A DNA stretch of 64,000 nucleotides from Candidatus Multivorans sp. (GTDB taxonomy: Bacteria; Acidobacteriota; Thermoanaerobaculia; Multivoradales; Multivoraceae). The notes under the pieces are model-generated. The model was given only the letters and a program-made list of their open reading frames with translations. It was not told the origin of the DNA and made no database searches. Below are positions 16,056 through 36,957 of this stretch, one piece after another. A program made the translations under genes and the position numbers. The stretch lies in the NCBI GenBank assembly GCA_965224025.1, contig OZ245033.1, forward strand, positions 832,001-896,000. Reading direction: 5' to 3'. The number at the start of each line of letters is the position of its first letter. The stretch's first letter is position 1.

Positions 16056-16144
16056 GGAGCGTGCGCCGCAAAACGTAGGGTGCGCCGATCTTTCTGCCGC
16101 GCACGCCCATGACGCGGCGAAACCAGTCGGCGTAGCGGCGGCAG

Positions 16145-18601: not shown

Positions 18602-18615
18602 CCGGCCCTTCCGGC

Positions 18616-18693
18616 GCTTAGGAACTCCTTAGCGCAAGTTTCCAGTCTTCTTCGAGCCGACTTTGAGACTGGTGCCCGGGCGCTGCATAGCGT
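18616..18693 (+). promoter_or_regulatory. TBDR promoter with five 11-bp-phased repeats abutting the -35
   Basis: TT cores at 18618, 18629, 18640, 18651 and 18662; GAGACT-17-TAGCGT. Confidence 0.7.
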
Positions 18694-18782
18694 ACTGGCG
18701 GGAAAACAGAAGATCCCGACAACTCCAGGGTCATCGTGCCCGCCAGTTCAGCCGCGGTGGCTCCGGTCAAGGAGGAGGCACC

Positions 18783-21578
18783 ATGAAGGTCTCACCGCTT
18801 CGCTGCTCTTCGGCCCTCGACCCGCGCCTGCGCCCGCTGCCGCTCTGCGTGCTGGCGGCCGGCCTGCTCTTGCTGGCTCCTGTCCTGCCCGCGGCCGCCC
18901 AGACCACGGCGACAACGGCGAGCATCTCGGGCTTCGTCACCAACGCCAGCGGGGAGCCGCTCCCCGGGGTTACCGTCCTGATCGAGGATGTCGAGCGCGG
19001 CATGAGCATCACGCGCGCGACCGACCAGAACGGCTATTTCGTGCTCCCGAACGCCAGTCCTGGGCTGTATTCCGTCAGGCTCACCCTCGACGGTTATCAG
19101 GAGATGGTCTACGAGGACATCGATGCAGGTCCCAACGCCCGGCTCCGTTTCGAGTTCGAGCTGCAGCCGCAGGTGGAGGTGCAGGAAACGGTAACGGTGA
19201 GCGCCCGGGCGCCGGCGATCGAAACGAGCGAGGCGGCGATCAAGAGCACGATCTCCTACGATGAGTTCGACAAGCTACCGGTGCTCAGCCGCAACTTCCA
19301 GGAGGTGGTGGACATCCTGCCCGGCGTCACCAAGACCGGGGCGAACTTCAACATCGCCGGCTCCCGCAGCAACCAGAACATCTTTCTGATCGACGGCGCA
19401 CGCAACAACGACTTGAGCGGCACCTCGACCCGCTTCAGTCAGAGCGTCTACTTCATCGTCGCCTCGCAGAACCCCGACGATCCGACCGTGGGCCTGCAGA
19501 CCGGCTTCAACCTGCAGTCGTACAACCTGGACGCCATCGCCGACATCCAGGTCGTCACCTCCGCCTACTCGGCCGAGTTCGGGCAGGGTTCCGGAGGGGT
19601 GATCAACCTCATCACCCGGGCGGGCACAGACCAGTTGAAGGGCGGGGTCACGCTCAACTACCAGGACGACTCGTTGAACGACGACGAGTCGTTCGACACG
19701 TTGGGGCGCTCCCAGACTTCTCTCTCGCTGGGTGGCCCGATGGTCCGGGGCCGGAACTGGTACTTCGTCAGCTATGAGCGGGACGACTACGAAGTGGGGT
19801 TCGACAACCGGCGCATCGCCTATCCGGGCGAACCGCATGGCGCAAAGATCCGCTCGTTCGTGCTCGACACCGACCTCCTGCAGAGCGATACCAGCCAGGA
19901 TCGCTTCGCCTCGAAGTTCTCGTTCCAGATCAACGACGACAACCTCCTCAACCTCACCGTCAACGTCAACAAGGAGACATCGCTCTTCAACCAGGCCATC
20001 AACCGTCCCTCGGTCGACCAGATCGAGCCCCGCCACGGCGCCAACGACAGCATCAGCCTGCTGCTCAACGACTACCACACGCTGTCCGACCGGAAGTTCG
20101 TCCATAGCCTGCTGCGCTACGGCGAGACGGACCGCAGGAGCCGCTCCGACCTCGGCGTCGACGGCTACCAGCCGATCATCGTCAACGATGCAGGGAGGTT
20201 CATCGACTACTACGTCACCGGCGCGTTCGGCGAGGTACTCGATGCCCAACTGGACGTGTTCGAGTGGAAGGAGACCCTGACCTGGCTGACTGAAAGCCAT
20301 GCCGTCAAGTTCGGCTTCGACTGGGAGCGTTTCGAAGAGGATCTGCTCGTGCCGGCGCGCGAACTGTTCGTGTCGCACAACGTGGACGCTGGCGGCAACG
20401 TGATCCCGGTGAGCGGGTCGGTGGCGCCGCCAGATGCGCTGTTCGTCTTCTACTCGACCGGTACGCCTATCGATCAGCAGGCCAGCGTGGCGCTCAACAC
20501 CTACTCCACCTTCGGCCTCGACGACTGGAGCATCAACCCTCGCTGGACCCTGAGCTACGGCCTGCGCTACGACTACGACGACTTCCTCGAGAACCACGAG
20601 TTCTCGCCGCGTATCCACACCGCCTACGCCGCCAGCCCGCGGCTGGTCGTCCGGGGTGGCGCCGGAATCTTCCGCGATCGCTCCACTCTGCTCTCCACCG
20701 AGGAGGACACCGTGGTCCGCTCGCGTGGCCTCAGTTGGAACAAGGCCACCGGGCTGCCGTTCTCCGACCCGAACGTGCTGCCGGACGACAACGGGTTCCT
20801 GACCGACAACTTCAACTCGCCGATCACCAACCAGGCCAACATCGGTTTCGAGTACGACCTGGGCAACAGCTACGTCCTCGGAGCCAACTACATCTACAAG
20901 GACTTCGAGGATCTGGTGTGGACCGAGATCATCAACAAGCGGTCGATCGAGGGTTTACCCACCGATCCTTTGATTCCCGTCAACTCCAAGCTGATCGGCA
21001 ACTTCGGCTACCTGGAGGACCAGCTTCTCGAGGTGGTGTTCCGCAAGCGTTTCTCCGGCGGGGCCTACTTCAACTTCAACTACACACTGGAGGACACCGC
21101 GGGCAACACCTCCCAGGAGGTAGCGGCGCGCAACGAGACGGTGGTCAACTCCATCGTCGAGGCGGAGAGTCAGAGCGAGCGACGACATCCGGCGGACTAC
21201 GAGGTCGAGCACGCCCTGAAGGCCTCGGGCGTCTTTCTGCTGCCGTGGGGCATCAACGTCTCCACGGTGGCCAAGTACCGGACCGGAAGGCCGTGGACGC
21301 CCGAGGAGCGGATCGGCACCCCGTTCGCGTACTTCATCGCGCCCGAGGGAATCAACGCCCGCAACCTGCCCGACGAGTTCCAGTGGGACGTGCGGCTGGC
21401 CAAGTCGTTCCAGCTTGGCAACGACAATGTGCTCGAGATCTACGGGGACCTGTTCAACGTCACCGACCGTGACAACGTGCGCTCGGTGAACCAGATCATC
21501 ACGTTCGCCGGCTACGCCGAGCCGACCTCGTTCAAGCTGCCGCGCACGGTCCAGCTCGGCATCAAGTACCGCCACTGA
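18783..21578 (+). CDS. TonB-dependent receptor (intact)
   Basis: GGAGGAGG RBS; signal peptide; ISGFVTNASGEPLPGVTV; SAEFGQGSGGVINLITRAGT; PRTVQLGIKYRH. Confidence 0.95.
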   Translation: MKVSPLRCSSALDPRLRPLPLCVLAAGLLLLAPVLPAAAQTTATTASISGFVTNASGEPLPGVTVLIEDVERGMSITRATDQNGYFVLPNASPGLYSVRLTLDGYQEMVYEDIDAGPNARLRFEFELQPQVEVQETVTVSARAPAIETSEAAIKSTISYDEFDKLPVLSRNFQEVVDILPGVTKTGANFNIAGSRSNQNIFLIDGARNNDLSGTSTRFSQSVYFIVASQNPDDPTVGLQTGFNLQSYNLDAIADIQVVTSAYSAEFGQGSGGVINLITRAGTDQLKGGVTLNYQDDSLNDDESFDTLGRSQTSLSLGGPMVRGRNWYFVSYERDDYEVGFDNRRIAYPGEPHGAKIRSFVLDTDLLQSDTSQDRFASKFSFQINDDNLLNLTVNVNKETSLFNQAINRPSVDQIEPRHGANDSISLLLNDYHTLSDRKFVHSLLRYGETDRRSRSDLGVDGYQPIIVNDAGRFIDYYVTGAFGEVLDAQLDVFEWKETLTWLTESHAVKFGFDWERFEEDLLVPARELFVSHNVDAGGNVIPVSGSVAPPDALFVFYSTGTPIDQQASVALNTYSTFGLDDWSINPRWTLSYGLRYDYDDFLENHEFSPRIHTAYAASPRLVVRGGAGIFRDRSTLLSTEEDTVVRSRGLSWNKATGLPFSDPNVLPDDNGFLTDNFNSPITNQANIGFEYDLGNSYVLGANYIYKDFEDLVWTEIINKRSIEGLPTDPLIPVNSKLIGNFGYLEDQLLEVVFRKRFSGGAYFNFNYTLEDTAGNTSQEVAARNETVVNSIVEAESQSERRHPADYEVEHALKASGVFLLPWGINVSTVAKYRTGRPWTPEERIGTPFAYFIAPEGINARNLPDEFQWDVRLAKSFQLGNDNVLEIYGDLFNVTDRDNVRSVNQIITFAGYAEPTSFKLPRTVQLGIKYRH

Positions 21579-21602
21579 GGAAGCTGGCGAGCCAGCCAGG
21601 GA

Positions 21603-24113
21603 TCAGGCACCGCCACCGAGCAGGCGGGAGATCAGCAGATCGAGGTCGGCGCTGCTGCCCACCCCGCCGACCTCGACGGTGATCAGCACGCTGTGCTCGG
21701 TGCCGACAGCGACGCCGCTGCCCTCCGGCTCCTGGACCGGCAGCAGGAGTTCACCGGCGCCCGTGGCTGTGACGGCATCGGGTAGCGTGGCGCCGGTCGA
21801 GAAGTCGACATCGAGGCCGTCGAACAGCGAGCCGGGGGCACCGACGAGTCGGTCTGGCCGCACGCGGTCCTGAACGAAGCGCACGCCCAGCCGGCGGAGA
21901 AAGTCACTCCCGTCGAGATCCCGGGCCGCGTTCTGCCCGGCCAGGATCAAGCGCCCCACCTCGAGGAACCGACTCAGCAAGCGCTCTTCGGTCTCCGACA
22001 GCGTCTGGTACGCCTCTTCCCCCTTGATCCACAGCACGGTTTCGTAGCGCAGCAGGTCGGGGAGGGGAACGCGCGGCTCGGGCCAGTGGGACAGCAGGTC
22101 GAACGGCATGCCGAGACGCTCGAGGCCCTTCGTCCATTCCGTCTCGTAGAACCCTCCGCCGTCGTCATCCACCAGGAGGAGCCGGCTGCCCCACACGGGA
22201 AGCTCGAGCTTCAGCTCCCGGCGGCCCGCCGTGCCGAGGTTCACCACCAGGGTCAGCGGGACTCGTGAGCCAGGCTCTGCTTCGGCAGAGATGTCCAGCG
22301 TGAAGGAGACGGTCTGGCCCTGATCGAGCAGCTCGAGCCGCTGGCGCGGCCGCGGGATCGAGACCACGTCGTCAGCGGCGACAAGCTCCAGCTCCGTGCC
22401 GCGGTCGGGACCGCCGGGATTCTCGACATCGAGCTCCACCACCACCCGACTGCCCGGATGGAGCAGCCGGGCGCTCCCAACTTCACCAGGCTCGTCGGCG
22501 TCCGCCGCACCCGTCTCGGGCGGCCGGAAGCGGATCGCCGTCAGACGTGGCAGCGGCAGGCTCCCCAGCATGATGGCGTCGTACGCCTGCACCAGACCGG
22601 CGCCGGTGTAGGGATCGGTGCCGATCTCGCCGATGTCCCGACTGCTGCGGATCAGGCGATCGCGAATCTGATCGGGCATCAGCTCCGGCTCGTGCTCCAG
22701 CATCAGGGCGACGACCCCGGCCATGTGGGGCGAGGTGAGCGAACTGCCCGCCTGGTTGCCGAGCACCTCGTACCCGCGCAGCCGGAAGTGGACGGTGGGG
22801 AAGTTGCCCCACGGCGCGCTCAGCGCCACCACTCCCGTCACGCCCTCGGGGAGTGGATAGTCGTCGAACGGCGGCACGTCGACCCAGGTCACCGGTCCGC
22901 GGCTGCTCAGCGGCGGCAGGGAACCGTCCTTCATGAGGCCGCCGGTGGCGATCACGGCCGGCACGTTCGCCGGCGGCAGGATCTGCCGCGGCACCGGATA
23001 GGCGCCGCGCCAGTTGCCGGTTCCCGCAACCATCACGACTCCGGCCGCCACCGCGTTCGTGGCGGCGTGGCGCCAGGCGGCGTCGAGCGGTTTTTCCGCC
23101 GGCTCCCAACTGAAGCTCATGTTGATGACGTGCGCTCCTTCGACCACTGCGTACTGGAGCGCCTCGAAGGCGTCGTACTGAAACGCCCGCCAGAGGGTGC
23201 GGTTGTCGTGGCGGGTGCGCTGGTCGTACATGCGCAGCGTCATCAACTGGGCGGCCGGAGCGATGCCGGTGAGCATGCCGGAGCGGCCGTCGCCCACCAT
23301 CACACTGGCCGACGAGTTGCCGTGGAAGAAGTCGTCCTCGATGTTGCCGTTGCCGTTGGCGAAGTTGAAGCCGTAGATGTCGTCGACGTAGCCGTTGCCG
23401 TCGTCGTCCTCGAGGTTGCGCTCCACCTCGCCATCGTTGCGCCACAGGTGATAGCGGAAATCGGCGTGGCGATAGTTGACGCCGCTGTCCATGATCGCGA
23501 CCACCACTCCGCGCCCGAGGAGCCCGAGCCGCGACCACACCTGGTTCGCCTGAATGCTGGTGAGGTTCCACGACAGCTCTTCGTGGGCCAACACGTCATC
23601 GATCGTGACGGCCTTGCCCGCCGGTTGCTCGAAGGACCGCGTGTACTTGCCCTCGGTGGCGATGAGGTCCTCGGGCTTCTCGGTGCGCAGATACACCCTC
23701 GCCACGCGCGGCGACCGCCCGAGCCACTCGATTCCGGGCCGGTCGAGCTTCAGGCCGAGTCCGTTGACGATCCAGAAACGGCGCGTTGCCGCGGAGCGGT
23801 GCCCTGCGGCTTCGAACTCGTCCAGGAGTGCGTCCTGCGACCTGCCGGCAAGGGCCTGGAGCTCGTCGATCGCCGATCGGCGCCAGGTAGCCTTCCGGAA
23901 GTCGGTCTCACGCCTCCAGCTCCGCTCGTCCAGCCCGGACTGCTCGCGCAGGAGCACGAACAGCGGGATGGCGTTCTCCGTCTCCTCCAGGGCTTGTATG
24001 AGATCGGCGTCGAGCCGCTCGTGGTCCGGCTCCTGCGCGGCGGGCCGGCCGGCGATGGCGCCGCACAGAGCCCAGGCGAGGGCGATGGCCAAGGTGTTCC
24101 GCTTCGTGCTCAC
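21603..24113 (-). CDS. S8 subtilisin-like serine peptidase with I9-like propeptide and C-terminal extensions
   Basis: VAIMDSG, DDDGNGYVDDIYG, HGNSSAS, GSSLTSPHMAG. Confidence 0.9.
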   Translation of the reverse strand: MSTKRNTLAIALAWALCGAIAGRPAAQEPDHERLDADLIQALEETENAIPLFVLLREQSGLDERSWRRETDFRKATWRRSAIDELQALAGRSQDALLDEFEAAGHRSAATRRFWIVNGLGLKLDRPGIEWLGRSPRVARVYLRTEKPEDLIATEGKYTRSFEQPAGKAVTIDDVLAHEELSWNLTSIQANQVWSRLGLLGRGVVVAIMDSGVNYRHADFRYHLWRNDGEVERNLEDDDGNGYVDDIYGFNFANGNGNIEDDFFHGNSSASVMVGDGRSGMLTGIAPAAQLMTLRMYDQRTRHDNRTLWRAFQYDAFEALQYAVVEGAHVINMSFSWEPAEKPLDAAWRHAATNAVAAGVVMVAGTGNWRGAYPVPRQILPPANVPAVIATGGLMKDGSLPPLSSRGPVTWVDVPPFDDYPLPEGVTGVVALSAPWGNFPTVHFRLRGYEVLGNQAGSSLTSPHMAGVVALMLEHEPELMPDQIRDRLIRSSRDIGEIGTDPYTGAGLVQAYDAIMLGSLPLPRLTAIRFRPPETGAADADEPGEVGSARLLHPGSRVVVELDVENPGGPDRGTELELVAADDVVSIPRPRQRLELLDQGQTVSFTLDISAEAEPGSRVPLTLVVNLGTAGRRELKLELPVWGSRLLLVDDDGGGFYETEWTKGLERLGMPFDLLSHWPEPRVPLPDLLRYETVLWIKGEEAYQTLSETEERLLSRFLEVGRLILAGQNAARDLDGSDFLRRLGVRFVQDRVRPDRLVGAPGSLFDGLDVDFSTGATLPDAVTATGAGELLLPVQEPEGSGVAVGTEHSVLITVEVGGVGSSADLDLLISRLLGGGA

Positions 24114-26077
24114 GACGCCCCGATGCGCAGCACGAGGTGGCTGCGAAGACGGTCGAGGAGTGCCTCGATGCGCTCCCGGTCGACGCCGGCCTCGACCAGC
24201 CGGCGGATGAGTTCACGCGGTTGCGACTCGGCGGCGTCGAACACGAGGGCGACGTCGGCTTCGGGGTCCAGGAGCGGCTCGGACAGCTCGCTCGCCGCCG
24301 TCACGCGCACCAACACCGGGGCTCCCTTGAGGTCGCCGGGGCCGAGGAACAGTACGCGCAGGGGCGCCCCCTCCTCGCGGTCGGACAGCTCTCCCGGCTC
24401 GCTTACCACCCTGACCGACGCCGGTACGCTCGCCCGCAGGGCTTCCGTCTGCCGCTGCCCGGCCGGCTCAACGAGCACGAGATCGAAGCCTCGGGTCCGT
24501 AGCGTCTCCCAGGCTACCGGCTCGTCACCGGGTTTGACGATGCCGGTGACGAAGCCGTACCGCCAGAGATAGCGCGCCAGACGGCCGGAGGTGTCGTAGG
24601 AACCGGCCGCGACGTCGGCCGCTGCGCGCAGCGCCTGATCAGAGAAGTGTCCAACGACGCGCAGCATCTCGGGTGAGATCGTGCCGGCGTCGTCCTCCGG
24701 GGTGTGCACGTACGGCTGCGGGGCGTCGGCATGGGCGAAGAGCGCCGGAATGCCCTGAATCTGGAAGCTCCAGCCGTCACTGCCCCCGGCGCCGCGCAAC
24801 GTGAAGTGGGCGAAGAGTTCCTCTGCAACGCCCGCGCGCACCAGCGCGAGTTCCTCCGGAAAGTTGTGCGCGCCGAAGAGACGGAAGCGGTCTTCTCCCA
24901 CCCCTACGTTGTCCAGGGTCAAGGTCAAGACGATCTTGTCCAGCGGCCATCGAGCCTGTTCGAGAAAACGGCTCGATCCCCAGACCCCCTGCTCCTCGGC
25001 GCCCCACAGGGCAAACATCACCGAGCGGGCGGAAGGTCCCTCCGCCGCCATCACCCTGGCCAACTCGAGTACGGCCGCGGTACCCGACGCGTTGTCCTCG
25101 GCGCCGTTGTAGACGGTACCGTCCGGATCCCTGCCGCCGCCGTCGTAGTGGGCCCCCACCAGCACCAGCTCGTCGGCAAGTTCGGGGTCGCTGCCCTCGA
25201 GCAGGCCGAGGACGTTCGCCCCGACCTTCTCGGTGACGTACTCCACGCCCACCTGCCAGGCCACCGTCTTGCCGGTGTGGTACGACGCGTGCTCCCCCCG
25301 GTCGATACGCTGCTTGAGCGCGACGCCCTGGCCGTCGAGGAGATCCTGGGCGACGGCGACGTTGACCTTCGCGAGGAAGAAGCCGGGAAGATAGTTGCGG
25401 GGACGGAAGACCCAGATCCGCATCCGGTCCAGTTCCACGCCCGCGCCCGGATCGGAGACGAGGAGCAGGCCCGCGGCGCCGAGCTCCCGAGCCCGTTTCG
25501 CCTTGTTCATGTGGGCGGCCAGCCGACGCTCGAGCTTGCTGTGCGGCGGCATGCCGTCCATCGCCAGTAGTACTTTGCCCCGGACCTCGACGCCCTCGAG
25601 TTCGTCGAGCTTCGAGGTCGCCAGACCGTAGCCCACGAACACCACCTCGGCCTCGCCGCTCGTGGCCGAGGAACCATTGAGGAAGAAGTAATCCTCGCCG
25701 TAGACCAGCTCCTTCCTGCCCCGGCTCGGCTTTCGTGGCGCTTCGGTTGCGTCCGCTGCCGCGTTGGGAGCGGCCGAGTCGATGGCGAGCCGAACCGGCT
25801 GCACGAAGCGGTAGAACGGAAAGGTGAAGCGGTGCAGGTACGAGCCGTCGTCGCCGGCCGGCTCGAGCCCCGACTGCTCGAAGGCCTCGGCGATCAGCCG
25901 CGCTGCTTTATCCCCGCCGGAGGTGCCGGTCCGCCGGCCATCGAGCCGGTCGGCCGCCAGCGTCTCGACCCAGGCGTGGGCGCGCCCGGCCTCGAACTCC
26001 CCTGCCCGGCGCTGGCAGGCGGGTGGCAAGGTCGCGAGCAACGCGACAAGCAGCACCCCGTGAGACCGTGTTCTCAT
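24110..26077 (-). CDS. M28 metallopeptidase with PA domain (probable lipoprotein)
   Basis: GAHYD, GAEDNASGTA, GAEEQG, SDG, HTPEDD. Confidence 0.92.
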   Translation of the reverse strand: MRTRSHGVLLVALLATLPPACQRRAGEFEAGRAHAWVETLAADRLDGRRTGTSGGDKAARLIAEAFEQSGLEPAGDDGSYLHRFTFPFYRFVQPVRLAIDSAAPNAAADATEAPRKPSRGRKELVYGEDYFFLNGSSATSGEAEVVFVGYGLATSKLDELEGVEVRGKVLLAMDGMPPHSKLERRLAAHMNKAKRARELGAAGLLLVSDPGAGVELDRMRIWVFRPRNYLPGFFLAKVNVAVAQDLLDGQGVALKQRIDRGEHASYHTGKTVAWQVGVEYVTEKVGANVLGLLEGSDPELADELVLVGAHYDGGGRDPDGTVYNGAEDNASGTAAVLELARVMAAEGPSARSVMFALWGAEEQGVWGSSRFLEQARWPLDKIVLTLTLDNVGVGEDRFRLFGAHNFPEELALVRAGVAEELFAHFTLRGAGGSDGWSFQIQGIPALFAHADAPQPYVHTPEDDAGTISPEMLRVVGHFSDQALRAAADVAAGSYDTSGRLARYLWRYGFVTGIVKPGDEPVAWETLRTRGFDLVLVEPAGQRQTEALRASVPASVRVVSEPGELSDREEGAPLRVLFLGPGDLKGAPVLVRVTAASELSEPLLDPEADVALVFDAAESQPRELIRRLVEAGVDRERIEALLDRLRSHLVLRIGAS

Positions 26078-26078
26078 G

Positions 26079-28151
26079 TCAGTCCTTCCACTGCATCAGA
26101 TCGACAGACACGAGGTCTTCCAGAAAGCGCGAAACGCCGGCCAGCTCGACGGTGCCGAGGTCGGCGGCCACCGCGGCCCTGATCTCCGTCGCGGTGCGGC
26201 GGCCGTCGGCGAAATTTAGGATCGCGTCCCGCCGCATGGCGTCGAGGCCTCCCTGCTGATACCACGCCCGGCGCGAGTCGGGGAGTCGCTCCAGAACGAA
26301 GGCGAAGCGCAACGTGCCGAAGAATGTACGCACCGGCACCCGGCTGCCCGCCGCGGTGGCCGTCGAAGCCGCCTCCGACTCGACGGGCAACCCCCGCAGC
26401 GTTGCCTCGTCGACGTAGGCGCGACGCAGCAGACGCCGACCGTTGACGGACTGCCGCTGCAGCGCTTCCTCGAGCCCGGATATCCGCCGCTCGCCGGCGG
26501 GATTCATCCCCAGGCGCCGTACCGAGCCCACCGATTCCACCGCGTGCAGGGCTGTGTGGCGCAGACGGTTGTCCTCGACACGCCAGACCGCGTCCAGCTC
26601 GGTCACGGTTGCGAGCCGGTTGAGCGCGGTGGCCAGCCCGGTGCTGAATCGCGCCGCCGACGCTCCCCAGACGAGCTGCGCGAGGGGAACTGTGTCCCTG
26701 GGCCCGGCGTCGGCAAGGAAGGCGACCGTGGCGGCGGTGACGTAACCCGCCCGCATCAAGGTGGTGGCATCGATGTGATCGGCGGTGTCCTCGTTCGAGT
26801 GGTAGAAGTTGTCGGGGAAGGTGCCCAGCATGACCGCCGGCACGGCGACCGTGCTGTCGACGAAGTGCGCGTGGTCACTGATGACTCCGCTGTACGCCAC
26901 CTCTTCGAAGTGGAACGGGTTGCGTGAGCCCCAGCGCGACCGGTACTGCTCACGGGCCACCTCTTCGAGCAGGCTCTTCACCAGGTCCGGCAGGTAGGAG
27001 GGGAGAAAGCCTGGTGTTCGCGTGAGTTGGAAGATCGATCCCGATTCCGCCTGGTCCGCTCCCACCATGTCGTTGTTCATGACGGCGATGCCGCGACGGT
27101 TCCAGTCCCGGTTGAGGTGGAGGAAGATCTGCGTGCCGCGGTGCTCGGGGACCCACAGGAACCGGACTGTGCGACGGGGCGCCAGCAGGTCCCGCTCGAT
27201 GAGGCGGCGCAGCACCTTGGCAACCTCCAGGCTGAGGCCGGAGCCGCTCGCGTTGTCGTTGGCGCCCGGGCGATGATGGTTGAGGTGCGCGATGACCAAT
27301 ACCTCTTCCTCGGCGAGGTCGGTGCCGCGAATGGCCGCGCTGAGGACCTCGTACTCTCCATCCTCCAGGGCGGCATCGATCCTGGCGTGCAGCCGCACCG
27401 GTCCACGCTCCAGCCGGCGGAGGAGCTCCGCGGCCATCCGCTTCGAGATCGAGAATGCGCTTCGCCTCGGCTCCAGGCTCTGCGGCACCGCCTGCCACGC
27501 CACCTGGTCGGGGAACGGGCTACGGTCGGGAAGGTAGTTCCCCCAGTGAGAGACGACCCCCAGGATCTCGAAGCGCCCCTCGGCGAAGGCGAACACGGAC
27601 GAAGCGGTGGAGGAAGCGAGAACGAGCTTCCCGTCCACGTCCTTGCCGGCCCACTCGGCCTCGTCGAGCCCGGTCCCGACGTCCACTAGTTCGGCCACCG
27701 AGTCGACGCCGGAGGAGTACTTGACGATGCAGGTCGGGACGTCGAGGTAGCGGCAGACCGGCTCCCCGCTGTCCGCGTAGGTGAGCGAGCCCCCGCCGAG
27801 ACGCCAGGCCCAGGAGGCGGTGTAGGTGTCGAGGACCGGACTCCTTCCGTCGGCCGGGTACCGGATCACCTGGATGTCCTCCAGGCCTACCTTGGCCGCC
27901 TCGGCACGCACGTACTCCACGGCCCGATGGAAGCCCTCGGTCGTGGACGTGCGGTCGTAGGTGGACAGTTGCCATACGTGATCGAGCGCCACCTGCCCCT
28001 GGAGCTCGTCGCGAATCAGACCACGAACCTCCGCCGAGACCGGCGAGCCGTCGACCCCCTCCGCCAGGGCAAGGGGCAGCGATGCGAACAGCGCCGTCGA
28101 GAGCACGGCGAGGGCCGCGCCAACGCTCGCCCGTCGTTGCGCCGAGGCCAT
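26079..28151 (-). CDS. M28 / DUF4910-type aminopeptidase
   Basis: AHLNH, GANDNASG, WVPE, NNDMVG, SDH, YHSNED. Start 28151 is inferred from the promoter position. Confidence 0.88.
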   Translation of the reverse strand: MASAQRRASVGAALAVLSTALFASLPLALAEGVDGSPVSAEVRGLIRDELQGQVALDHVWQLSTYDRTSTTEGFHRAVEYVRAEAAKVGLEDIQVIRYPADGRSPVLDTYTASWAWRLGGGSLTYADSGEPVCRYLDVPTCIVKYSSGVDSVAELVDVGTGLDEAEWAGKDVDGKLVLASSTASSVFAFAEGRFEILGVVSHWGNYLPDRSPFPDQVAWQAVPQSLEPRRSAFSISKRMAAELLRRLERGPVRLHARIDAALEDGEYEVLSAAIRGTDLAEEEVLVIAHLNHHRPGANDNASGSGLSLEVAKVLRRLIERDLLAPRRTVRFLWVPEHRGTQIFLHLNRDWNRRGIAVMNNDMVGADQAESGSIFQLTRTPGFLPSYLPDLVKSLLEEVAREQYRSRWGSRNPFHFEEVAYSGVISDHAHFVDSTVAVPAVMLGTFPDNFYHSNEDTADHIDATTLMRAGYVTAATVAFLADAGPRDTVPLAQLVWGASAARFSTGLATALNRLATVTELDAVWRVEDNRLRHTALHAVESVGSVRRLGMNPAGERRISGLEEALQRQSVNGRRLLRRAYVDEATLRGLPVESEAASTATAAGSRVPVRTFFGTLRFAFVLERLPDSRRAWYQQGGLDAMRRDAILNFADGRRTATEIRAAVAADLGTVELAGVSRFLEDLVSVDLMQWKD

Positions 28152-28158
28152 GCACAAC

Positions 28159-28225
28159 ATCGTGACGGCGCGCCGTCCTCAAGTCTCTAAGCCGTCTCGA
28201 AAGAAACCCAAAAGATCGTCGAAAG
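28159..28225 (-). promoter_or_regulatory. Internal promoter with four 11-bp-phased repeats
   Basis: Sense CTTTCGACGATCTTTTGGGTTTCTTTCGAGACGGCTTAGAGACT-17-CACGAT-7-ATG. Confidence 0.7.
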
Positions 28226-28272
28226 AGACCGACCTCCGCGGCTGCCCCGGCGACGCCGGGGCGGGTTCCTCG

Positions 28273-30741
28273 CTAGTGCTCGAGATGGGTTTCGAACAGT
28301 CCGAGAATGCGCCGGAAACGGTCCAGCCAACTGGTTGGATGCACGAAGCCGTGAGACTCCAGCGGGTAGACGGCCAGCTCCCAGTCCTTCTTCTCGAGTT
28401 CGATCAGACGCTGCACCAACTGGATGGTGTCCTGAAAGTGAACAGTGCGGTCCACCATCCCATGACTGATCAGGAGCGGGCGCTCCAGTCCCGCGGCGTA
28501 CTCGATCGGGGAACTTCGACGGTAAGCCTCCGGGTCGAGCTCCGGTGGGTTGAGGATGTCCGAGGTCCATGGGTAGTTGTAGTGCCCCCAGTCGGTCACG
28601 GGGTTGATCGCAACTCCCGCGGCGAAGAGCTGGGGCCTCTTGAACATGGCCATGAGCGTCAGGAAGCCACCGTACGAGTCGCCGTAGAGGCCGATGCGCC
28701 GGCGGTCGACGCCATGGTTGCGGACGAGCCAGTCGACCCCGACCTCGAGGTCCTGGACCTCCGGCTCTCCCATGTGCCGGTAGATCGCCGTGCGCCAGTC
28801 TCGTCCGTATCCCCGGGACGCCCGGTAGTCCATCTCGAGCACCACGTAGCCTCGCTGGACCAGCAGACTGTGGAACATGAACTCTCTCGCGTACCACGGT
28901 TCCCAGCCTGCATGGGCGTTCTGGAAGTAGCCGGCCGCGTGCACGAGGAACACGGCCGGCGGGGGAGAGGCACTCGCGGGCTGTTCGGAGCGGTAGAGCC
29001 GGGCGTAGATGGGACGCTCGGTGTGCGGCGAGGGAATCGCCACCAGCTCCGGCACGACCCACGGCGTCTCGAGAAACGCCTGGCTGGTCGTGTGGGTCAA
29101 CTGCCGCGCGGTGGCGCCGGCCTCGGCTCGCTGCACGTACAGCTCCGCCGGGCGGTTGGAGCGCGTCACGGTGAGCAGGAGCCTCTGACCGTCCGGCGAG
29201 ACGGCGAAGGTGGTCACGCCGCCGAAATCGGTCAGCCGTTCGACCTGCCCGCTGGACACGTCGGCCCGGTAGACCTCCCAGACGCCGGGGTGCTCGCGAT
29301 TGGCGGTGAAGTAGAGGTGGCGGCCATCACGGCTGAGGGTGGGCCTCGAGACCGTGTACGTTCCCTCCGTGAGTCTGCGTCGATCCCCCCCGTCGAGCGG
29401 ATGCAGAACCAGATGGGAGTAGCCGCTCTCCTCGGAGAGATAGAACAGGGTGCGACCGTCCCTCAGCCAGCCGACGTCCCGGAACACGCGGGTGACCCAC
29501 GCAGGATCGTGCATTCTCACGATCGGGACCACTCGACGCGACTCGAGGTCGATCTCGGCGATCCACCGGTCCTTGCAGTCTAGGGAGAACAGTTGCACCA
29601 CCACCCGCTCGCCGTCGTCGGACCAGAGGATGTTCCAGAAGTGGACCGGTCGCTGCCGAGCGCTTGCCGTCGCCTCGCCGCCGGCGGCGACGGCCTGAGC
29701 TCCCTCGCCCGCCTCGCTGCGCTCGGCGGCCGCTCGCCGCAGGTCCGCCAGCGGGTCCTCGTCCATGCCGGGGAGCGAGCTCAGGTCGAGGGCGACCCGC
29801 TCGTGGGAGGAGCGGTCGAGAAGCCACAGGGTCTCTTCCCGCTCCTCGAAGTCCTCCGCCTTCGGACGCCCCGGATCGGAGGCGACGTGGCCGCTGTCGG
29901 TCACGTAGCGCGGGACCATCTCCGGCAGGCGCGGCTTGGCGGCCTTGCTGGCGGTGGTGAGGAGGAGCCACCGTTCGTCCGGTGAGATCGAGAGGCGGTG
30001 CACCTCGACGTCGTCTCCCAGGTACCAGGCGGGGTCGGCCAGCGTGGAGTCCTTGCGTCGTTCATCCTGCTCGCGGTCGCGCGCCAGCCTCGTCTCGTCC
30101 CGTTGGACCCGGAGCACGTCGAACAGCCGCCGTTGCCGGCGCTCCACGTGCCCGGCCTGCTGCTGCTGTTCCCGCTCGACCTCCACCGGATCCCGTTCGA
30201 GCAGCAGGACGAACGGCTCCTCTTCCAGGCCGCTCGCGAGATCCCGCACCAGCAGACGAGCGCCTCGGCGGTAGGCGACCCGTTGCTGGGTGAGCGGCCA
30301 CGGATCGCTCTCGGTTTCGTGGGTGCGGGTGAGCTGCCGTCTCCGGCCGTTGACGAGGTCGCGGGCCCAGATGTCCCCCTCTCGGGCGTAGACCTTGAGG
30401 CGTCGGTCGCGGCTGAGCCTGCCGCCTCCGGCGTCGACGCCGCCCCGCTCCCCGAGCGGGACCACGCGCGTCTCTCCCGTCTCGAGCTCGAGCTCGACGA
30501 GGTCGCGGCCGCGCTCGCCCGTGAGTTTCTGGAAGTAGAAGACGGAGGCGCCGTCCTCTGCCCAGTAGGCCCTTTCGGGCGCGTTTCCCAGCCAGTCGAG
30601 GTCGGACGCGATCCGCTCGAGCGTGAGCGGCTCGGCAGCGGACTCACTACTCGGCTGGGATTGAGCCTCCCGCGCGAACAGGCAGAGGCACAGGACAGCG
30701 CCGAGCGCCGCCGTCGTCGCACGGGCTCCCGATCGCCTCAC
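28273..30741 (-). CDS. S9 prolyl oligopeptidase / DPP-IV-like peptidase
   Basis: GTG start overlaps the upstream TGA; signal peptide; GDSYGG, HGMVDRTV, ESHGF. Confidence 0.93.
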   Translation of the reverse strand: MRRSGARATTAALGAVLCLCLFAREAQSQPSSESAAEPLTLERIASDLDWLGNAPERAYWAEDGASVFYFQKLTGERGRDLVELELETGETRVVPLGERGGVDAGGGRLSRDRRLKVYAREGDIWARDLVNGRRRQLTRTHETESDPWPLTQQRVAYRRGARLLVRDLASGLEEEPFVLLLERDPVEVEREQQQQAGHVERRQRRLFDVLRVQRDETRLARDREQDERRKDSTLADPAWYLGDDVEVHRLSISPDERWLLLTTASKAAKPRLPEMVPRYVTDSGHVASDPGRPKAEDFEEREETLWLLDRSSHERVALDLSSLPGMDEDPLADLRRAAAERSEAGEGAQAVAAGGEATASARQRPVHFWNILWSDDGERVVVQLFSLDCKDRWIAEIDLESRRVVPIVRMHDPAWVTRVFRDVGWLRDGRTLFYLSEESGYSHLVLHPLDGGDRRRLTEGTYTVSRPTLSRDGRHLYFTANREHPGVWEVYRADVSSGQVERLTDFGGVTTFAVSPDGQRLLLTVTRSNRPAELYVQRAEAGATARQLTHTTSQAFLETPWVVPELVAIPSPHTERPIYARLYRSEQPASASPPPAVFLVHAAGYFQNAHAGWEPWYAREFMFHSLLVQRGYVVLEMDYRASRGYGRDWRTAIYRHMGEPEVQDLEVGVDWLVRNHGVDRRRIGLYGDSYGGFLTLMAMFKRPQLFAAGVAINPVTDWGHYNYPWTSDILNPPELDPEAYRRSSPIEYAAGLERPLLISHGMVDRTVHFQDTIQLVQRLIELEKKDWELAVYPLESHGFVHPTSWLDRFRRILGLFETHLEH

Positions 30742-32885
30742 AACCGTCTCTCCAGCGTAACCAGGCCGTGCCGCTCCAGAATCCGCACCAGACGCAGAAC
30801 GTCGCTCATCGAAATCCGGCGAGAGTCCAGGGAGAAGTCCTCCACCCTCCCGACGCCGTGGGCGTCGAGCCCGAAGTCGAACGCTTCGGCGCTCAGCGCG
30901 TCCCGGATGTCGAGCAGGGAGCGCTTGCCGTCCATGAAGTTGAGCAGCTCCGAAATCCGAATGTAGGAGTAGGGCAGGCGGCGCCTCAGACCCTCGAGCC
31001 ACTCCCGGTCGGTCTCCTCGACATCTTCCTGCAGGAGCTCGTCGCGCCATCGCTCGTTGAGGAGCGGCCTCCCCCGTCGCGGCACCAGGTCCGCGGCCGT
31101 CCGCTCGTCCGCGTCGAGGGGACGCACACCCGGCGGCTCGCCGGCGACCGCCTCGTAGGCCTGGGCCAGCGCGCCGCCCAGGGCCTCGAGCTGCCGGTCG
31201 ACGGCGCCGGCGAGGTCGTCGAGGTGCGGGTCGAGTCCGTTTGCCAGCTCTCCGACGGCACGCAGTGCGCGCCGTTCCCGGGCGCCGTAGTGAACCAGCT
31301 TCCGCTCGGCGAGCCAATACGCCTCCGTGAGCTGGTCCCCTCGCACCGAGCCGAGCAGGGCCAGCCCCTCCCGGGCGGCCCCGGCGAGTCGGCCCGTTCC
31401 CTCGGCGAACACTTCCCACGCGATCCGTCGCGCCTCAGCCTCGCCCGCCGTAGCCAGCAGGTAGGCGGCCCCCGCCGCAATGATCCCGGCGCGCTCGAGG
31501 TTGGTTGGGTCCACCTTGTCCGGGGCGTCCAGATTGGTGTGGTGGAAGGGATCCGGACCCGAGTGAAGGAACACGGTCGGAATGGCCAGGGCGCCGTCGT
31601 TGAGGATGTAGTGGTCGCTGTCCGGACTCCACGGTTTCACGCGGACGTTCAATACCGAGTCGGAGCCGGTCGGGGCCCGGAGCGGCACGCCGTCCAGCCA
31701 GCGTGTCAGGTTCGTCACGACATCGAGAAAGTAGGAGGGCATGGAGTCCGGGGGACGGCGGATGTTGAACGGTCCGTTGCCGGCATGGGGACCCTCTCCC
31801 ACCATGTCGAGGTTGATCGCTGCGATCACCCGGTCAGCCAGATCGGGGTGAGCGTCGAAGAAGGCGTAGGTTCCGGCCCCCTCGGTCATCCACAGGAAGC
31901 GGATCGTTCGCGCCGGAGGCTCGATCAGCCCGGCGTCGATCAGGCGGTGGAGGGTGCGGGCGATCTCAAGCAGCAGGCCGCTGCCGCTGGCGTTGTCGTT
32001 GGCGCTGGGCCGCACGTGGTCGATGTGCGCGAGGAGCAGGATCTCCTCCTCGCTCCGGCTGGTGCCAGGGATCACCGCAGTCACCACCTCCTGGGCGCCG
32101 GCAGCCAGCTCGGCGTCGATCAGGACGGTGGCCAGCAGGCGTCGGCCCGCCCGCAGCTCCCGCCTCAGCCGCTCTCCCTCCGCCGCCGAGATCGAGAACG
32201 CGAACGTCGGCTCCCGACCGTCCACCGGGCGCGGCGCGAGCACCTGCCAGGTGACCATGTGGGGGTAGCCCCAGCCCTTGTGGACGTTGTACGACTCGCC
32301 GCCGCTCACCACCACGCCGGCGGCGCCGTAGCGCCCGACCGCCAGCGCCTCCACCGCGCTCGAGAAGCCGGTCGCCAGCACCAGCTTGCCTCGGACATCG
32401 AGGCCATCGTAGTGGTCCGGACTGGTGCCTCTGCCGATGTCGACGAGCTCGGCCGTGACGGAGGCGGGCCGCGAGTAACGGGCGAGAGCGATCGGTAACT
32501 GGTCGTACGAGGCAACGAGATGCTCGAACGGCTCCACCACTCGCAGCTCGGCGGTGCGTACCAGCCAGCGCGGCAGGGGAGATGGGGCGCCCTTCCGGTA
32601 GCGGGCGGGCTGCTCCGGTCCGTAGCGCTCCAGTTCGGCATTCGCGATGCCAAGGCCCTTCAGTTCGCCGAGCAGCCAGTCCGCGGCGTCGCGAAAGCCT
32701 GGCGACGCCGAGATCCGGTCCCAGGCGGCCAGGCGAACGACGTACCGCTTCGCTTCCACCCCCGAGAGCTCGCGGTGGATGAGGCCGGCGACGCGCTCGT
32801 CCAGGAGGACGGGCGACTGTGCCGCGGCGATGGCCGGGAGAGCCGCCGCAGCGAGCGCGAGGATCGCGGAACGGGACCTGGTCAC
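30738..32885 (-). CDS. M28 / DUF4910-type aminopeptidase (paralog of 26079-28151)
   Basis: AHIDH, SANDNASG, NLDMVG, SDH, HHTNLD. Confidence 0.88.
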   Translation of the reverse strand: MTRSRSAILALAAAALPAIAAAQSPVLLDERVAGLIHRELSGVEAKRYVVRLAAWDRISASPGFRDAADWLLGELKGLGIANAELERYGPEQPARYRKGAPSPLPRWLVRTAELRVVEPFEHLVASYDQLPIALARYSRPASVTAELVDIGRGTSPDHYDGLDVRGKLVLATGFSSAVEALAVGRYGAAGVVVSGGESYNVHKGWGYPHMVTWQVLAPRPVDGREPTFAFSISAAEGERLRRELRAGRRLLATVLIDAELAAGAQEVVTAVIPGTSRSEEEILLLAHIDHVRPSANDNASGSGLLLEIARTLHRLIDAGLIEPPARTIRFLWMTEGAGTYAFFDAHPDLADRVIAAINLDMVGEGPHAGNGPFNIRRPPDSMPSYFLDVVTNLTRWLDGVPLRAPTGSDSVLNVRVKPWSPDSDHYILNDGALAIPTVFLHSGPDPFHHTNLDAPDKVDPTNLERAGIIAAGAAYLLATAGEAEARRIAWEVFAEGTGRLAGAAREGLALLGSVRGDQLTEAYWLAERKLVHYGARERRALRAVGELANGLDPHLDDLAGAVDRQLEALGGALAQAYEAVAGEPPGVRPLDADERTAADLVPRRGRPLLNERWRDELLQEDVEETDREWLEGLRRRLPYSYIRISELLNFMDGKRSLLDIRDALSAEAFDFGLDAHGVGRVEDFSLDSRRISMSDVLRLVRILERHGLVTLERRL

Positions 32886-34120
32886 TCGCTCGGCATCCGT
32901 TTGCCGTTGATGAACACGTGGAGCACCTGGGAACGAGGGTCCAACGGGGGGCCCGACAGGACGACCACATCGCCGTCCATCCCGGGTCGCAGGCGTCCCA
33001 GTCGGTCGGCGACGCCGAGAAGCTCTGCCGGCCAGGACGTAACCGCCCGCAACGCGTCCTCCCGGGAGAGTCCGTGCTTGAGCAGATAGCCGGCGTTGAA
33101 CAGGAGATCACCGCTGCCGTAGGGGTTGCCTTCGCCGAGCTGGAGCGCGATGCGCACTCCGGCGTCGAGCAGCCGCGCCGCGTTCCGTTCGCTGAAGCTC
33201 TCCTTTTCGTACCGGTACCACAGGCCCTTGATCGAGGCCAGGACGACCGGCACGTCGCGACGCGCCAACTCCTCGGCGATCAGGTGCGCTTCGGTTGCGT
33301 AGGCGAGGATCACGTCGAAGTCGAACTCGTCGCTCAGCCGCAGCGCGTTGGCGATGTCCTTGGTCGTGTAGGCCTGCACCAACGCGGGCAGCTCGCCGCG
33401 CAGCAGCGTGGCGGTTGTCTCGAACTCGGCGTCGACGGCCTGACGTTCGCCGTTCTGTTCGGCCTGCCTGCGGCTTTCCTCATACACCCGCGCGCGGTTC
33501 AGGTGCTCGCGCAGCAGTGCGACCTCGCCCATGCGGGTCTTGGGCGCCGCGTTCGTGCGCTTCGGCTCATCTCCGAGGCTCATCTTGAGGACCGCCGGCT
33601 GCCGCACGACGTTCTCGCTCCCCACGGCCGGCGCGGTCTTGACAAGGACGCCACTGCCGCCGATGAGGTTCTTGCCGCCGGGCGCCGCCAGCAGCGTGGT
33701 GATGCCGGAGCGACGTGCGGACGCCACGTCCGCGGCAAACGCGTAGAAGGCGTCGAGGGCGTGGAGGTCGGCCGTGATCGGCCTGGTGTCCTCGTCGGTG
33801 TCCCAGCCGACGCCGTCGCCGTGAAGGCCGGTTTGGGAGTGCGCCTCGATCATCCCGGGCAGGATGAACCCGTCGGGCACCTCGATCACCTCGACATCGT
33901 CCGTGGCCGTCAGGTCACGCCCCACCGCCTCGATCCTGCCGTCCCGCAGCAGTACCTGACCGCCGGCGACGAAGCCACTCCCGTCGCTCCACAGCGTTCC
34001 CGCACGCACGAGCCAGCCGGCCGGCTGGTCGGAGACAACCTCCTGACCGACCGAGGGTCCCGACCACAGCATCCCGGCCAGGACCGGGATGCACCAGCTA
34101 CTCAGCCGCTGCACGCTCAT
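32882..34120 (-). CDS. Amidohydrolase-fold protein with degenerate metal ligands
   Basis: PGMIEAHSQ, LKMSLG, GRLRPGMDGDVVV. Confidence 0.85.
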   Translation of the reverse strand: MSVQRLSSWCIPVLAGMLWSGPSVGQEVVSDQPAGWLVRAGTLWSDGSGFVAGGQVLLRDGRIEAVGRDLTATDDVEVIEVPDGFILPGMIEAHSQTGLHGDGVGWDTDEDTRPITADLHALDAFYAFAADVASARRSGITTLLAAPGGKNLIGGSGVLVKTAPAVGSENVVRQPAVLKMSLGDEPKRTNAAPKTRMGEVALLREHLNRARVYEESRRQAEQNGERQAVDAEFETTATLLRGELPALVQAYTTKDIANALRLSDEFDFDVILAYATEAHLIAEELARRDVPVVLASIKGLWYRYEKESFSERNAARLLDAGVRIALQLGEGNPYGSGDLLFNAGYLLKHGLSREDALRAVTSWPAELLGVADRLGRLRPGMDGDVVVLSGPPLDPRSQVLHVFINGKRMPSE

Positions 34121-35375
34121 AGACGGTCTCCCCTTCGATCAGGACGCGGACGACGTTGGTCGACAGCGCCAGCGGCTCGCCGTCCAGCACGATCAGGTCG
34201 GCGTCCTTGCCAGACTCCAGGCTGCCGACCCGATCCGCGAGGCCGATGGCGCGAGCGGGATTCAGGGTGATGGCACGCAGGGCCTCCTCCTCGCCCAATC
34301 CCAGATGCACCGCGAAGGAGGCCTGCAGAAAGAGGTCAGGCACGTAACTGTCGGTCATGATCGACACTTCGACTCCCGCCTGGCCCATTCGGCCGGCGAC
34401 GTCGACTGGCCGTGGCGGATTCTTGCCCCGGTACCAGCCGTCGAGCTTCGGCCCCACGACGACCGGAATGCCGCTGCGGGCGATCTCGTCGGCCACCAGG
34501 TAGCCCTCGTAGACGTGACCCAGAGAGCCCTCGAGCCCGTGGCTGCGCATGAGGCGGACAGCGGTCAGGATGTCGTCGGCCCGGACCGCATGAATGTGAA
34601 CCAGGGCTTCGCCGGCCACGGTCGCCGCCAGCACTTCGAGCTCCGGGTCGATCTCCCCGGCCACCCTCGGCTCCCCCTGCCGCACCAACCTCGCGGCTTC
34701 CTCGAAGCGCGCCCTCAGCATCGCGCTGGAGCCCATGCGGGTCTTCGGTGAGCGCTCCTTGCGACCGTGCGACGACTTGGGGTTCATGCCGAGCGCCATC
34801 TTCAGCACCGGCCGCGATCCGATCAGCATCCGATCGAGGCCGCCACTTCGGTTCTTGAGCGCCCAGCCCAGCCCGCTCACCAGGTTGCTGCTTCCGGGAA
34901 GCACGAGCAGCGTCGTCGCGCCGAGTCCGCGGACCTTGTCGAACGCCGGATCGTCCGGGTCCAGGGCGTCCCGGACGTCGGCCAGAGGCGTGAACGGCCG
35001 GCTGCTCTCGGCGATGTCGAAACGTCCCGGAGTCAGATGGACGTTGCGGAGTCCGTAGTGGGTGTGAGCATCGACGAGACCGGGCATCACGACCCGGTCG
35101 GAGGCGTCGATCACCGAATAGCCCGGCGGCGTCTCGGTGCCGCTGCGCACTTCTTCGATCTTGCCGTCGACAACGAGGACCATCCCTGGAGACAGGGAGC
35201 CGTGCGAAATCGTGTTCACGGTCTTCGCTACGACTGCCAGCCGCTGCGCCGACACGTCCTCGCTCGGCATCAAGGGGATGGTCGCCGCTGCCAGGACGAG
35301 GACCCGCCACGGCCCCGAGACGCACATGGCGAGCCGGTCTCGGCAAGCCCAACGCCGATTCCTGACCGGGCCCAT
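34098..35375 (-). CDS. Metal-dependent amidohydrolase (exported)
   Basis: PGLVDAHTH, LKMALG, HIHA, GH, MTD, GSLESGKDADLIV. Confidence 0.9.
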   Translation of the reverse strand: MGPVRNRRWACRDRLAMCVSGPWRVLVLAAATIPLMPSEDVSAQRLAVVAKTVNTISHGSLSPGMVLVVDGKIEEVRSGTETPPGYSVIDASDRVVMPGLVDAHTHYGLRNVHLTPGRFDIAESSRPFTPLADVRDALDPDDPAFDKVRGLGATTLLVLPGSSNLVSGLGWALKNRSGGLDRMLIGSRPVLKMALGMNPKSSHGRKERSPKTRMGSSAMLRARFEEAARLVRQGEPRVAGEIDPELEVLAATVAGEALVHIHAVRADDILTAVRLMRSHGLEGSLGHVYEGYLVADEIARSGIPVVVGPKLDGWYRGKNPPRPVDVAGRMGQAGVEVSIMTDSYVPDLFLQASFAVHLGLGEEEALRAITLNPARAIGLADRVGSLESGKDADLIVLDGEPLALSTNVVRVLIEGETVYERAAAE

Positions 35376-35382
35376 GGCAGCG

Positions 35383-35449
35383 ATGCTGTCGAGGGGGTCG
35401 CGCCAAGTCCCTAAGACTCCTCGAAGGATCCCCCAAGAATCGGCGAAGG
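35383..35449 (-). promoter_or_regulatory. Hydrolase operon promoter with four 11-bp-phased repeats
   Basis: Sense CCTTCGCCGATTCTTGGGGGATCCTTCGAGGAGTCTTAGGGACT-17-CAGCAT-7-ATG. Confidence 0.7.
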
Positions 35450-35475
35450 GCGACGGCGGACCTGCACCGTGTAGT

Positions 35476-36879: not shown

Positions 36880-36957
36880 GGCGCCCGATCGCAGAGGCGC
36901 TTCAACCGGCGCGAGGCCTTCGGCCCAGGCCGAGAGAGCGTTGGTGTCGAGAGTCAA
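36880..36957 (-). pseudogene. VapC (PIN) N-terminal remnant, in frame with the glycoside hydrolase
   Basis: TTG start overlaps the antitoxin stop; MTLDTNALSAWAEG is a PIN N-terminal motif. Confidence 0.75.

Follow-up and report, generated by a model that had tools for sequence, protein, structure and literature searches.

What controls a cluster of peptidase and receptor genes in Candidatus Multivorans sp., a member of the class Thermoanaerobaculia of Acidobacteriota (NCBI taxonomy), and does the regulator-like protein encoded beside the cluster take part? The genes lie in a 64,000-nucleotide stretch of contig OZ245033.1 (positions 832,001 to 896,000; hereafter the window, whose own coordinates are used throughout). 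The protein joins a winged helix-turn-helix (wHTH) DNA-binding domain to a transmembrane (TM) helix and a β-propeller. Downstream of its gene, and again upstream of two operons, short repeats recur at exact 11-bp intervals in front of candidate promoters. A first-pass annotation of the window had proposed that these arrays are binding sites of the adjacent protein. We consider it fairly probable that the arrays are operators of this regulator, which would bind them as a head-to-tail oligomer and activate the promoters, with their weak -35 elements, of a local regulon. The elements concerned are as follows.

16409-18601, plus strand: regulator gene (730 aa), start preceded by GAGGAGG
18618-18670, plus strand: operator array 1, of the TonB-dependent receptor (TBDR) gene; five units followed by ACT
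18688-18693, plus strand: putative -10 hexamer TAGCGT of the TBDR gene, position predicted
28182-28223, minus strand: operator array 2, of the M28 operon; four units followed by ACT
28159-28164, minus strand: putative -10 hexamer CACGAT of the M28 operon, predicted
35406-35447, minus strand: operator array 3, of the amidohydrolase operon; four units followed by ACT
35383-35388, minus strand: putative -10 hexamer CAGCAT of the amidohydrolase operon, predicted

The repeated unit has the consensus yTTCGAG, and its period is exactly 11 bp. Array 1 consists of TTAGGA (18618), TTAGCG (18629), TTCCAG (18640), TTCGAG (18651) and TTTGAG (18662); array 2 of TTCGAC (28223), TTTGGG (28212), TTCGAG (28201) and TTAGAG (28190); and array 3 of TTCGCC (35447), TTGGGG (35436), TTCGAG (35425) and TTAGGG (35414). 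All three are in the sense orientation, and each ends in GRGACT (GAGACT at 18665-18670 and at 28187-28182, GGGACT at 35411-35406). The distance from GRGACT to a hexamer of the form nAnnnT is exactly 17 bp at all three sites, and at two of them an ATG begins exactly 7 nt past the hexamer (28151 and 35375). The first-pass annotation had given these strings, coordinates and orientations upstream of TBDR, M28 and amidohydrolase genes, together with the 11-bp recurrence, the 17-bp distance and the placement of the two ATGs, and every one of these was found in the sequence.

GRGACT may serve as a -35 element. A generic sigma-70 scan of 16000-35900 returned no consensus promoter, a result consistent with activator-dependent promoters. 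Because the ATGs at 28151 and 35375 follow the hexamers so closely and neither is preceded by a Shine-Dalgarno sequence, the mRNAs of the M28 and amidohydrolase operons may be leaderless. The M28 frame has a second in-frame ATG at 28160, within the hexamer; the amidohydrolase frame has no in-frame start codon upstream of 35375. The ATG of the TBDR gene, at 18783, is preceded by AAGGAGGAGG, and the presumed transcription start site (TSS) would give a leader of ~82 nt.

The composite pattern TTCGAGN5TTWGRGACT, with up to two mismatches, occurs three times in the window, each time at one of the three promoters; shuffled sequences yield 0.17 matches on average, and 0 of 100 shuffles reach three. 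When three mismatches are allowed, the window contains seven matches against 3.66 expected, and we rejected the four additional ones as being at the level of chance. Because the pattern was derived from the sites themselves, an independent test must come from other genomes, through a matrix of the single unit. This matrix (8 nt, built from 13 window units) was scored as the sum over four units at periods of 8 to 14 bp. Within the window only period 11 yields arrays, which is circular because the matrix was trained on the same sites; under the same self-training, no further four-unit array scoring at least 14 exists in the window beyond the three sites and their shifted registers.

Related loci were collected by a protein search, which scored 8000 candidates, 1865 of them at E <= 1e-3; the source names point to Thermoanaerobaculia and Acidobacteriota. 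The closest proteins are 93, 89, 87, 61, 48 and 45% identical to the regulator, after which identities reach a plateau near 40%. An alignment of the seven closest served as the query for a genome scan that yielded 349 matching stretches and 270 relatives, and 80 loci (1.30 Mb) were retained for analysis. Five carry full-length orthologs: L001 (95%) and L002 (94%), both from Candidatus Multivorans sp., L003 (88%), L004 (89%) and L005 (48%).

In these five loci the matrix finds 19 four-unit matches at period 11 and none at periods 8, 9, 10, 12, 13 or 14. The composite pattern with up to two mismatches has 18 matches in the 80 loci, of which ten are in L001-L005, two per locus: one in the interval between regulator and TBDR genes, just behind the regulator stop codon, and one ahead of the M28 operon. 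Matches with no or one mismatch, in the window and the fetched loci together, are confined to orthologous promoters. The matrix scan of related genomes suggested in the first-pass annotation thus produced period-11 arrays in all five orthologous loci. A motif scattered without regard to promoters would have told against its proposal; within the 1.36 Mb covered, the motif is promoter-associated and sense-oriented. All parts of the proposal that could be computed held, and we regard it as supported.

The position orthologous to array 3 falls beyond the 10-kb flanks of the fetched loci, and the comparison of conservation covers the TBDR and M28 promoters. The arrays at both recur in five of five orthologous loci. 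Array 1 begins 17 bp past the regulator stop codon in the window and in all five, and its unit variants keep the same order: TTCGAA, TTAGAA, TTCCAG, TTCGAG and TTTGAG in L001, and TTCGAA, TTAGAA, TTCCAC, TTCGAA and TTAGAG in L005. The M28 promoter of L005 carries five perfectly phased units (TTCGAG, TTCGAC, TTTGAG, TTCGAA and TTAGGG) followed by ACT.

When the window is aligned with L005 (MAFFT), 34 of 53 array positions are identical at the TBDR promoter, compared with 7 of 73 and 43 of 123 in the flanks; at the M28 promoter the values are 30 of 42 in the array and 20 of 60 and 17 of 86 in the flanks. In the six-sequence alignment of the M28 promoter, all sequences agree at 21 of the 24 core columns but at 6 of the 18 spacer columns; the contrast is weaker at the TBDR promoter (19 of 30 core and 11 of 23 spacer columns). 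At 48% regulator identity, the phylogenetic footprint is confined to the array, and conservation collapses outside it. The three window sites, compared pairwise, share 28-35 of 53 positions in the array and 12-23 of 51 in the downstream flanks. Five independent promoters placed in a fixed register have cTT.G / TT / Tc.TTCGA / TTaG.GAct in common, and the columns conserved in four or five of them fall at 11-bp steps, with A2 and T6 of the -10 hexamer in addition. GACT stands directly after the last unit in four of the five, at a constant distance from the -10 hexamer.

The arrangement of regulator, operator and target is kept down to 48% regulator identity. The gene order regulator-TBDR-(S8, M28, M28) is maintained in L001, L002 and L004, and the TBDR of L005 is 59% identical to that of the window over 898 aa. 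For the S9 gene described below, synteny gives the location of homologous DNA and not a protein identity. L003 has lost the body of M28b, and the operator with the 5' end of M28b is joined to the ortholog of M28c (19580-19813); the operator has thus survived a deletion and stands before the next gene. A near-perfect inverted repeat with arms of ~23 bp covers the -10/+1 region of the L005 TBDR promoter (L005:12249-12305) and is not present in the window or in L001-L004.

The regulator itself can be divided into four parts.

Residues 15-110: wHTH domain
Residues 111-151: disordered linker
Residues 152-174: TM helix
Residues 186-717: periplasmic, all-beta tandem propeller

Pfam detects Trans_reg_C (1.7e-13, above the cut-off) and PD40 (1.5e-22). 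No Response_reg match was found in the protein at E <= 1e-3, and the wHTH domain begins as early as residue 15. The PDB sequences closest to residues 16-121 are CadC (5ju7, 3e-12) and ToxR (7nmb, 2.5e-11); OmpR, KdpE and PhoB-family chains also match the wHTH at 1e-3 to 2e-7, and residues 522-660 match TolB propeller chains at ~1e-10. An AlphaFold2 model based on a 95-sequence alignment (mean pLDDT 86.9, pTM 0.72) shows a wHTH with a four-strand sheet, three helices and a wing, the recognition helix being residues 76-89; the linker is modeled with low confidence. The recognition helix sequence VTDQSP[AS]EA is invariant in seven aligned orthologs. The helix at 152-174 consists of 23 mainly hydrophobic residues and forms the single predicted TM segment, with the C-terminal domain probably outside the cytoplasm. 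Searching the PDB with Foldseek returned double-propeller proteins (tricorn protease 1k32, WD-repeat tandem propellers and LRP6) as well as the single-propeller, TolB-like 2ojh (TM score 0.77, normalized to the target). Pfam, PDB matches, model and Foldseek thus agree with the earlier description of gene 16409-18601 as encoding a wHTH-TM-propeller protein. Because it combines a wHTH without a receiver, a linker, a TM helix and a tandem propeller, the regulator is, as judged from sequence and model, a ToxR/CadC-like transmembrane one-component regulator with a tandem-propeller sensor. Assignment as TolB was rejected: the score of the protein for TIGR02800, 92 bits, falls short of the curated cut-off (343), and the propeller shares its chain with a TM helix and a wHTH.

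The same periplasmic sensor is fused to a Ser/Thr kinase instead of a wHTH in P0067, P0076, P0079, P0082, P0092, P0109 and P0114. One sensor is therefore combined with two kinds of output.

The predicted targets are the following genes.

18783-21578, plus strand: TBDR gene, target 1; CarboxypepD_reg, plug and barrel domains (Pfam)
21603-28151, minus strand: target operon 2, consisting of M28 (26079-28151), M28 (24110-26077) and S8 subtilase (21603-24113) genes (Pfam)
28273-35375, minus strand: target operon 3, assigned by Pfam and NCBIfam (all below curated cut-offs)
34098-35375 and 32882-34120, minus strand: the first two genes of operon 3, both encoding amidohydrolases
30738-32885 and 28273-30741, minus strand: the last two genes of operon 3, encoding an M28 peptidase and an S9/DPP-IV-type peptidase

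On the plus strand the order is regulator, operator 1 and TBDR, and the minus-strand peptidase and amidohydrolase operons are convergent with these genes. Read along the minus strand, operator 3 is followed by the two amidohydrolase genes, M28 and S9, then by a GC-rich hairpin (~28245-28261, located by eye, between operon 3 and operator 2), operator 2, the two M28 genes and S8. The S9 gene has a GTG start at 30741 that overlaps the stop codon of the preceding M28 gene. Signal-peptide-like N-termini were seen by eye in the three products inspected (M28b, amidohydrolase-1 and S9). None of the ten cluster proteins reaches a curated NCBIfam cut-off, and the enzyme specificities therefore stay generic.

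Three further features were recorded. The predicted TBDR leader (18694-18790) folds at -40.6 kcal/mol (z -2.6) into a hairpin with a 9-bp stem (CUGGCGGG.../...CCCGCCAG) and a second hairpin around the Shine-Dalgarno sequence; the stem sequence of the hairpin is kept in L001-L004 and has no Rfam match, and a search with Rfam gave no match anywhere in the 64-kb window. A terminator scan of 16000-35900 found ten terminator-like sites against 7.0 expected and was set aside as uninformative. A 493-aa open reading frame (ORF) on the minus strand (35476-36957) ends 29 bp before operator 3 and has no Pfam or NCBIfam match.

If the arrays are operators of the adjacent regulator, the cytoplasmic wHTH domains would bind head-to-tail, one protomer per 11-bp unit, along a single face of the helix. 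The protomer nearest the promoter would cover the -35 region, from about -39 to -31 (TTWGRG-ACT). The sigma-70 -35 element there is poor, and this protomer would recruit RNA polymerase in the manner of PhoB at pho boxes and of ToxR at ompU. The periplasmic tandem β-propeller would sense a cue in the envelope or outside the cell and control oligomerization or access to DNA. The cue would most plausibly be peptides or protein substrates, a guess prompted by the composition of the regulon and by the likeness of the propeller to peptidase-associated propellers. The local regulon would comprise eight genes (the TBDR gene; two M28 genes and S8; two amidohydrolase genes, M28 and S9), and would amount to an extracellular proteolysis and peptide-uptake locus made up of exported proteins. 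None of the three targets is farther than 17 kb from the regulator gene, and such proximity is in keeping with a factor tethered to the membrane.

The more distant relatives provide a test that does not depend on the window motif. In 73 non-orthologous loci, self-matches of 6-mers with at most one mismatch were counted in the 350 bp upstream of the regulator gene. There are 372 such matches at a lag of 11, compared with 149 in matched random regions, and 281 at a lag of 22, compared with 148. The density at lag 11 is 14.6 per kb, against ~5-11 per kb at other lags. Taken locus by locus, there are more matches at lag 11 than the average for nine control lags (p = 2e-4 by the Wilcoxon test, compared with p = 0.64 in random regions), and lag 11 is above every control lag in 19 of 73 loci but in only 9 of 73 random regions. 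In a control made up of 125 other intergenic segments from the same loci (32.9 kb), lag 11 has a density of 7.3 per kb, no higher than the remaining lags in those segments (p = 0.76). Individual arrays are recognizable: L015, L016 and L018 have TTTGAG/TTTGAA arrays that lead up to a small divergent gene and close with GACTT, TTTGAG units occur in L071, and other repeated units are present in L046, L021, L035, L069, L028, L053 and L025. The array of L015 (9452-9964) faces a divergent gene for a 117-aa exported protein, and that of L071 (9681-9958) faces one for a 41-aa single-TM peptide. These small genes could encode co-components of the regulator.

Several observations weigh against the proposal that the adjacent regulator binds and activates at these sites. 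The window matrix has eight matches at period 11 in the other 75 loci, versus one to eight at other periods; yTTCGAG was therefore rejected as a family-wide motif, and what the family shares is the period and the placement by the regulator gene, not the word. Distant members carry the recognition helix VEEGNLxQNI in place of VTDQSPAEAIGVV in the window regulator, yet have similar TTTGAG units, which weakens a simple code relating helix to motif. With four of the five orthologs at 88-95% identity, the comparison effectively spans only two independent lineages, and conservation was checked for two of the three operators. In the distal half of the TBDR array the spacers are conserved along with the units (counted by eye, L001 and L005 agree at ~25 of 28 bases), and this half has dyad symmetry, so that a second factor or another mode of binding may act there:

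18618-18645 in the window, 12210-12237 in L001 and 12195-12222 in L005: distal half of the TBDR operator, dyad symmetry GAAACT...AGTTTC

In addition, the regulator, TBDR and peptidase genes are conserved as a syntenic block, and co-localization therefore makes the regulator a part of the cluster without identifying it as the protein that binds the arrays. No array is present in 16056-16408, upstream of the regulator gene, where distant family members have their signal (autoregulation of the gene was rejected for the lack of an array there). Finally, a site that overlaps the -35 region can also repress.

The synteny and the lack of an array before the regulator gene leave room for the arrays to be real but bound by another OmpR/PhoB-type factor, such as a response regulator encoded elsewhere, especially as 11-bp direct repeats overlapping the -35 region are generic to this superfamily. 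We judge such a binder to be unlikely, because the adjacent regulator has the sole OmpR/PhoB-type DNA-binding domain among 39 window ORFs scanned with Pfam, because array 1 holds its place directly behind the regulator gene in every orthologous locus, and because unrelated family members carry the lag-11 signal by their own genes and not in other intergenic DNA.

The same protein and sites might instead serve repression, with occupancy of the -35 region blocking RNA polymerase until a periplasmic signal lifts the block, in the way that ToxR acts at ompT. The proximal unit does overlap the presumed -35 element, and ToxR both activates and represses (PMC10629549). Nevertheless, the promoter elements at -35 and -10 are poor, the scan of 16000-35900 detected no consensus sigma-70 promoter, the arrays reach four to five turns upstream as in activator-dependent promoters, and the fixed distance of GACT from the -10 hexamer in four of five independent promoters points in the same direction. 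This leaves repression a rather slim chance.

At all three sites 17 bp separate the conserved GACT block from a hexamer of weaker conservation, and this constant spacing could also mark a promoter of an ECF-type sigma factor, with GRGACTT as the -35 element, nAssrT as the -10 element and incidental upstream repeats. We regard this as improbable, because conservation spans four to five units in a strict 11-bp register, far beyond the contacts of sigma, the 39 ORFs scanned revealed no gene for a sigma or anti-sigma factor, and the TBDR has no STN (signaling) domain match in Pfam. That the sites resemble one another for historical reasons, as copies of a promoter cassette or small repeat element without a present regulatory role that spread in a cluster containing paralogous M28 genes and in a window rich in insertion sequence (IS) elements, is very improbable, given that the downstream genes (TBDR, M28 and amidohydrolase) are non-homologous, that identity among the window sites falls away in the downstream flanks, and that cores are conserved over spacers at 48% regulator identity.

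Control by the adjacent regulator may be a case of a wider rule, which we put forward tentatively: acidobacterial wHTH-TM-double-propeller sensors would each control, by way of 11-bp-phased arrays beside their own gene, a small set of nearby genes for exported proteins, the present one acting as a peptide-sensing switch. A membrane-tethered factor would reach only nearby DNA, which would be drawn to the membrane by co-translational export. If so, the locus would be a protein-substrate analogue of polysaccharide utilization loci, and an envelope sensor would be tied to the decision to secrete peptidases and import peptides. Proteins of this architecture number at least in the thousands and occur chiefly in Acidobacteriota, abundant bacteria most of which are uncultured, and this large uncharacterized family of regulators gains a first testable target. 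The defined operator, the eight-gene regulon and the ortholog pair at 48% identity are material for binding, reporter and ligand work, and the lag-11 signature suggests a cheap way to predict operators for other family members.

Transmembrane wHTH regulators and operators of 11-bp direct repeats are already known. The new elements here are the sensor module, the regulon combining proteolysis with TonB-dependent uptake, the unusually long and ordered arrays and the family-wide signature. A 2023 survey describes transmembrane transcription regulators as enriched in Acidobacteriae, and a search of it for PD40, TolB and propeller found no occurrence of these terms (PMC10269533). A literature search that extended to neither subscription journals nor supplements found nothing on Candidatus Multivorans, on acidobacterial winged helix/TolB regulators or on PD40 with Trans_reg_C, and wHTH-TM-propeller regulators may have been described earlier.

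Other parts of the window contain features that do not involve the arrays. A TBDR gene (280-2556, plus strand) and a C-terminal barrel fragment (3821-4522, plus strand) flank an rve-type integrase gene (2616-3623, minus strand), and the region 280-4522 looks like a receptor gene split by an IS. Other transposase genes are at 5086-6249, 51192-52709 and 57455-58486. A minus-strand series at 56147-59853, encoding a DNA methylase-HNH fusion, an IS1595-type transposase and an AAA_21/AAA_15 ATPase, is possibly a defense or mobile island. Also on the minus strand, 40170-44616 encodes a planctomycete-type PSCyt1/PSCyt2/PSD1 protein and a DUF1501 partner, and adjoins a sodium:solute symporter gene (38496-40169).

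Four known systems share parts of this arrangement. TolB, of the Tol-Pal system, has a β-propeller of PD40 repeats like that of the window regulator; however, TolB is a soluble periplasmic protein, whereas the regulator carries a DNA-binding domain and a TM helix in front of its two propellers. In the PhoB pho box and in OmpR sites, 11-bp direct repeats take the place of a weak -35 element and are bound by wHTH domains in tandem, head-to-tail. Unlike PhoB and OmpR, the window regulator is membrane-anchored and has no receiver domain, and thus no phosphorylation switch.

CadC of Escherichia coli provides the best PDB match to the window wHTH, as noted above, shares its topology and likewise has a disordered linker ahead of its TM helix (PMC5430869). 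The same source places two TTAxxxxT sites, bound by CadC head-to-head, a long way upstream, at -153 to -113. In contrast, the window units are head-to-tail and abut the presumed -35 region, and the sensor domains differ.

ToxR of Vibrio cholerae has the same plan as the window regulator. In both, a wHTH of the OmpR/PhoB type with no receiver domain forms the cytoplasmic N terminus, and a single TM helix joins it to a sensor in the periplasm. ToxR binds direct repeats a helical turn apart near the -35 region, TNAAA-N5-TNAAT at -51 to -37 of ompU (PMC7496328), and multiple tandem sites near the TSS (PMC10629549). The periplasmic part of ToxR is small, whereas that of the window regulator is a tandem β-propeller of ~530 residues, and no gene for a ToxS-like partner is evident at the window locus. 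The ToxR unit is the AT-rich TNAAA, and that of the window is yTTCGAG, which is repeated four to five times at each of three promoters whose targets are peptidases and a TonB-dependent receptor.

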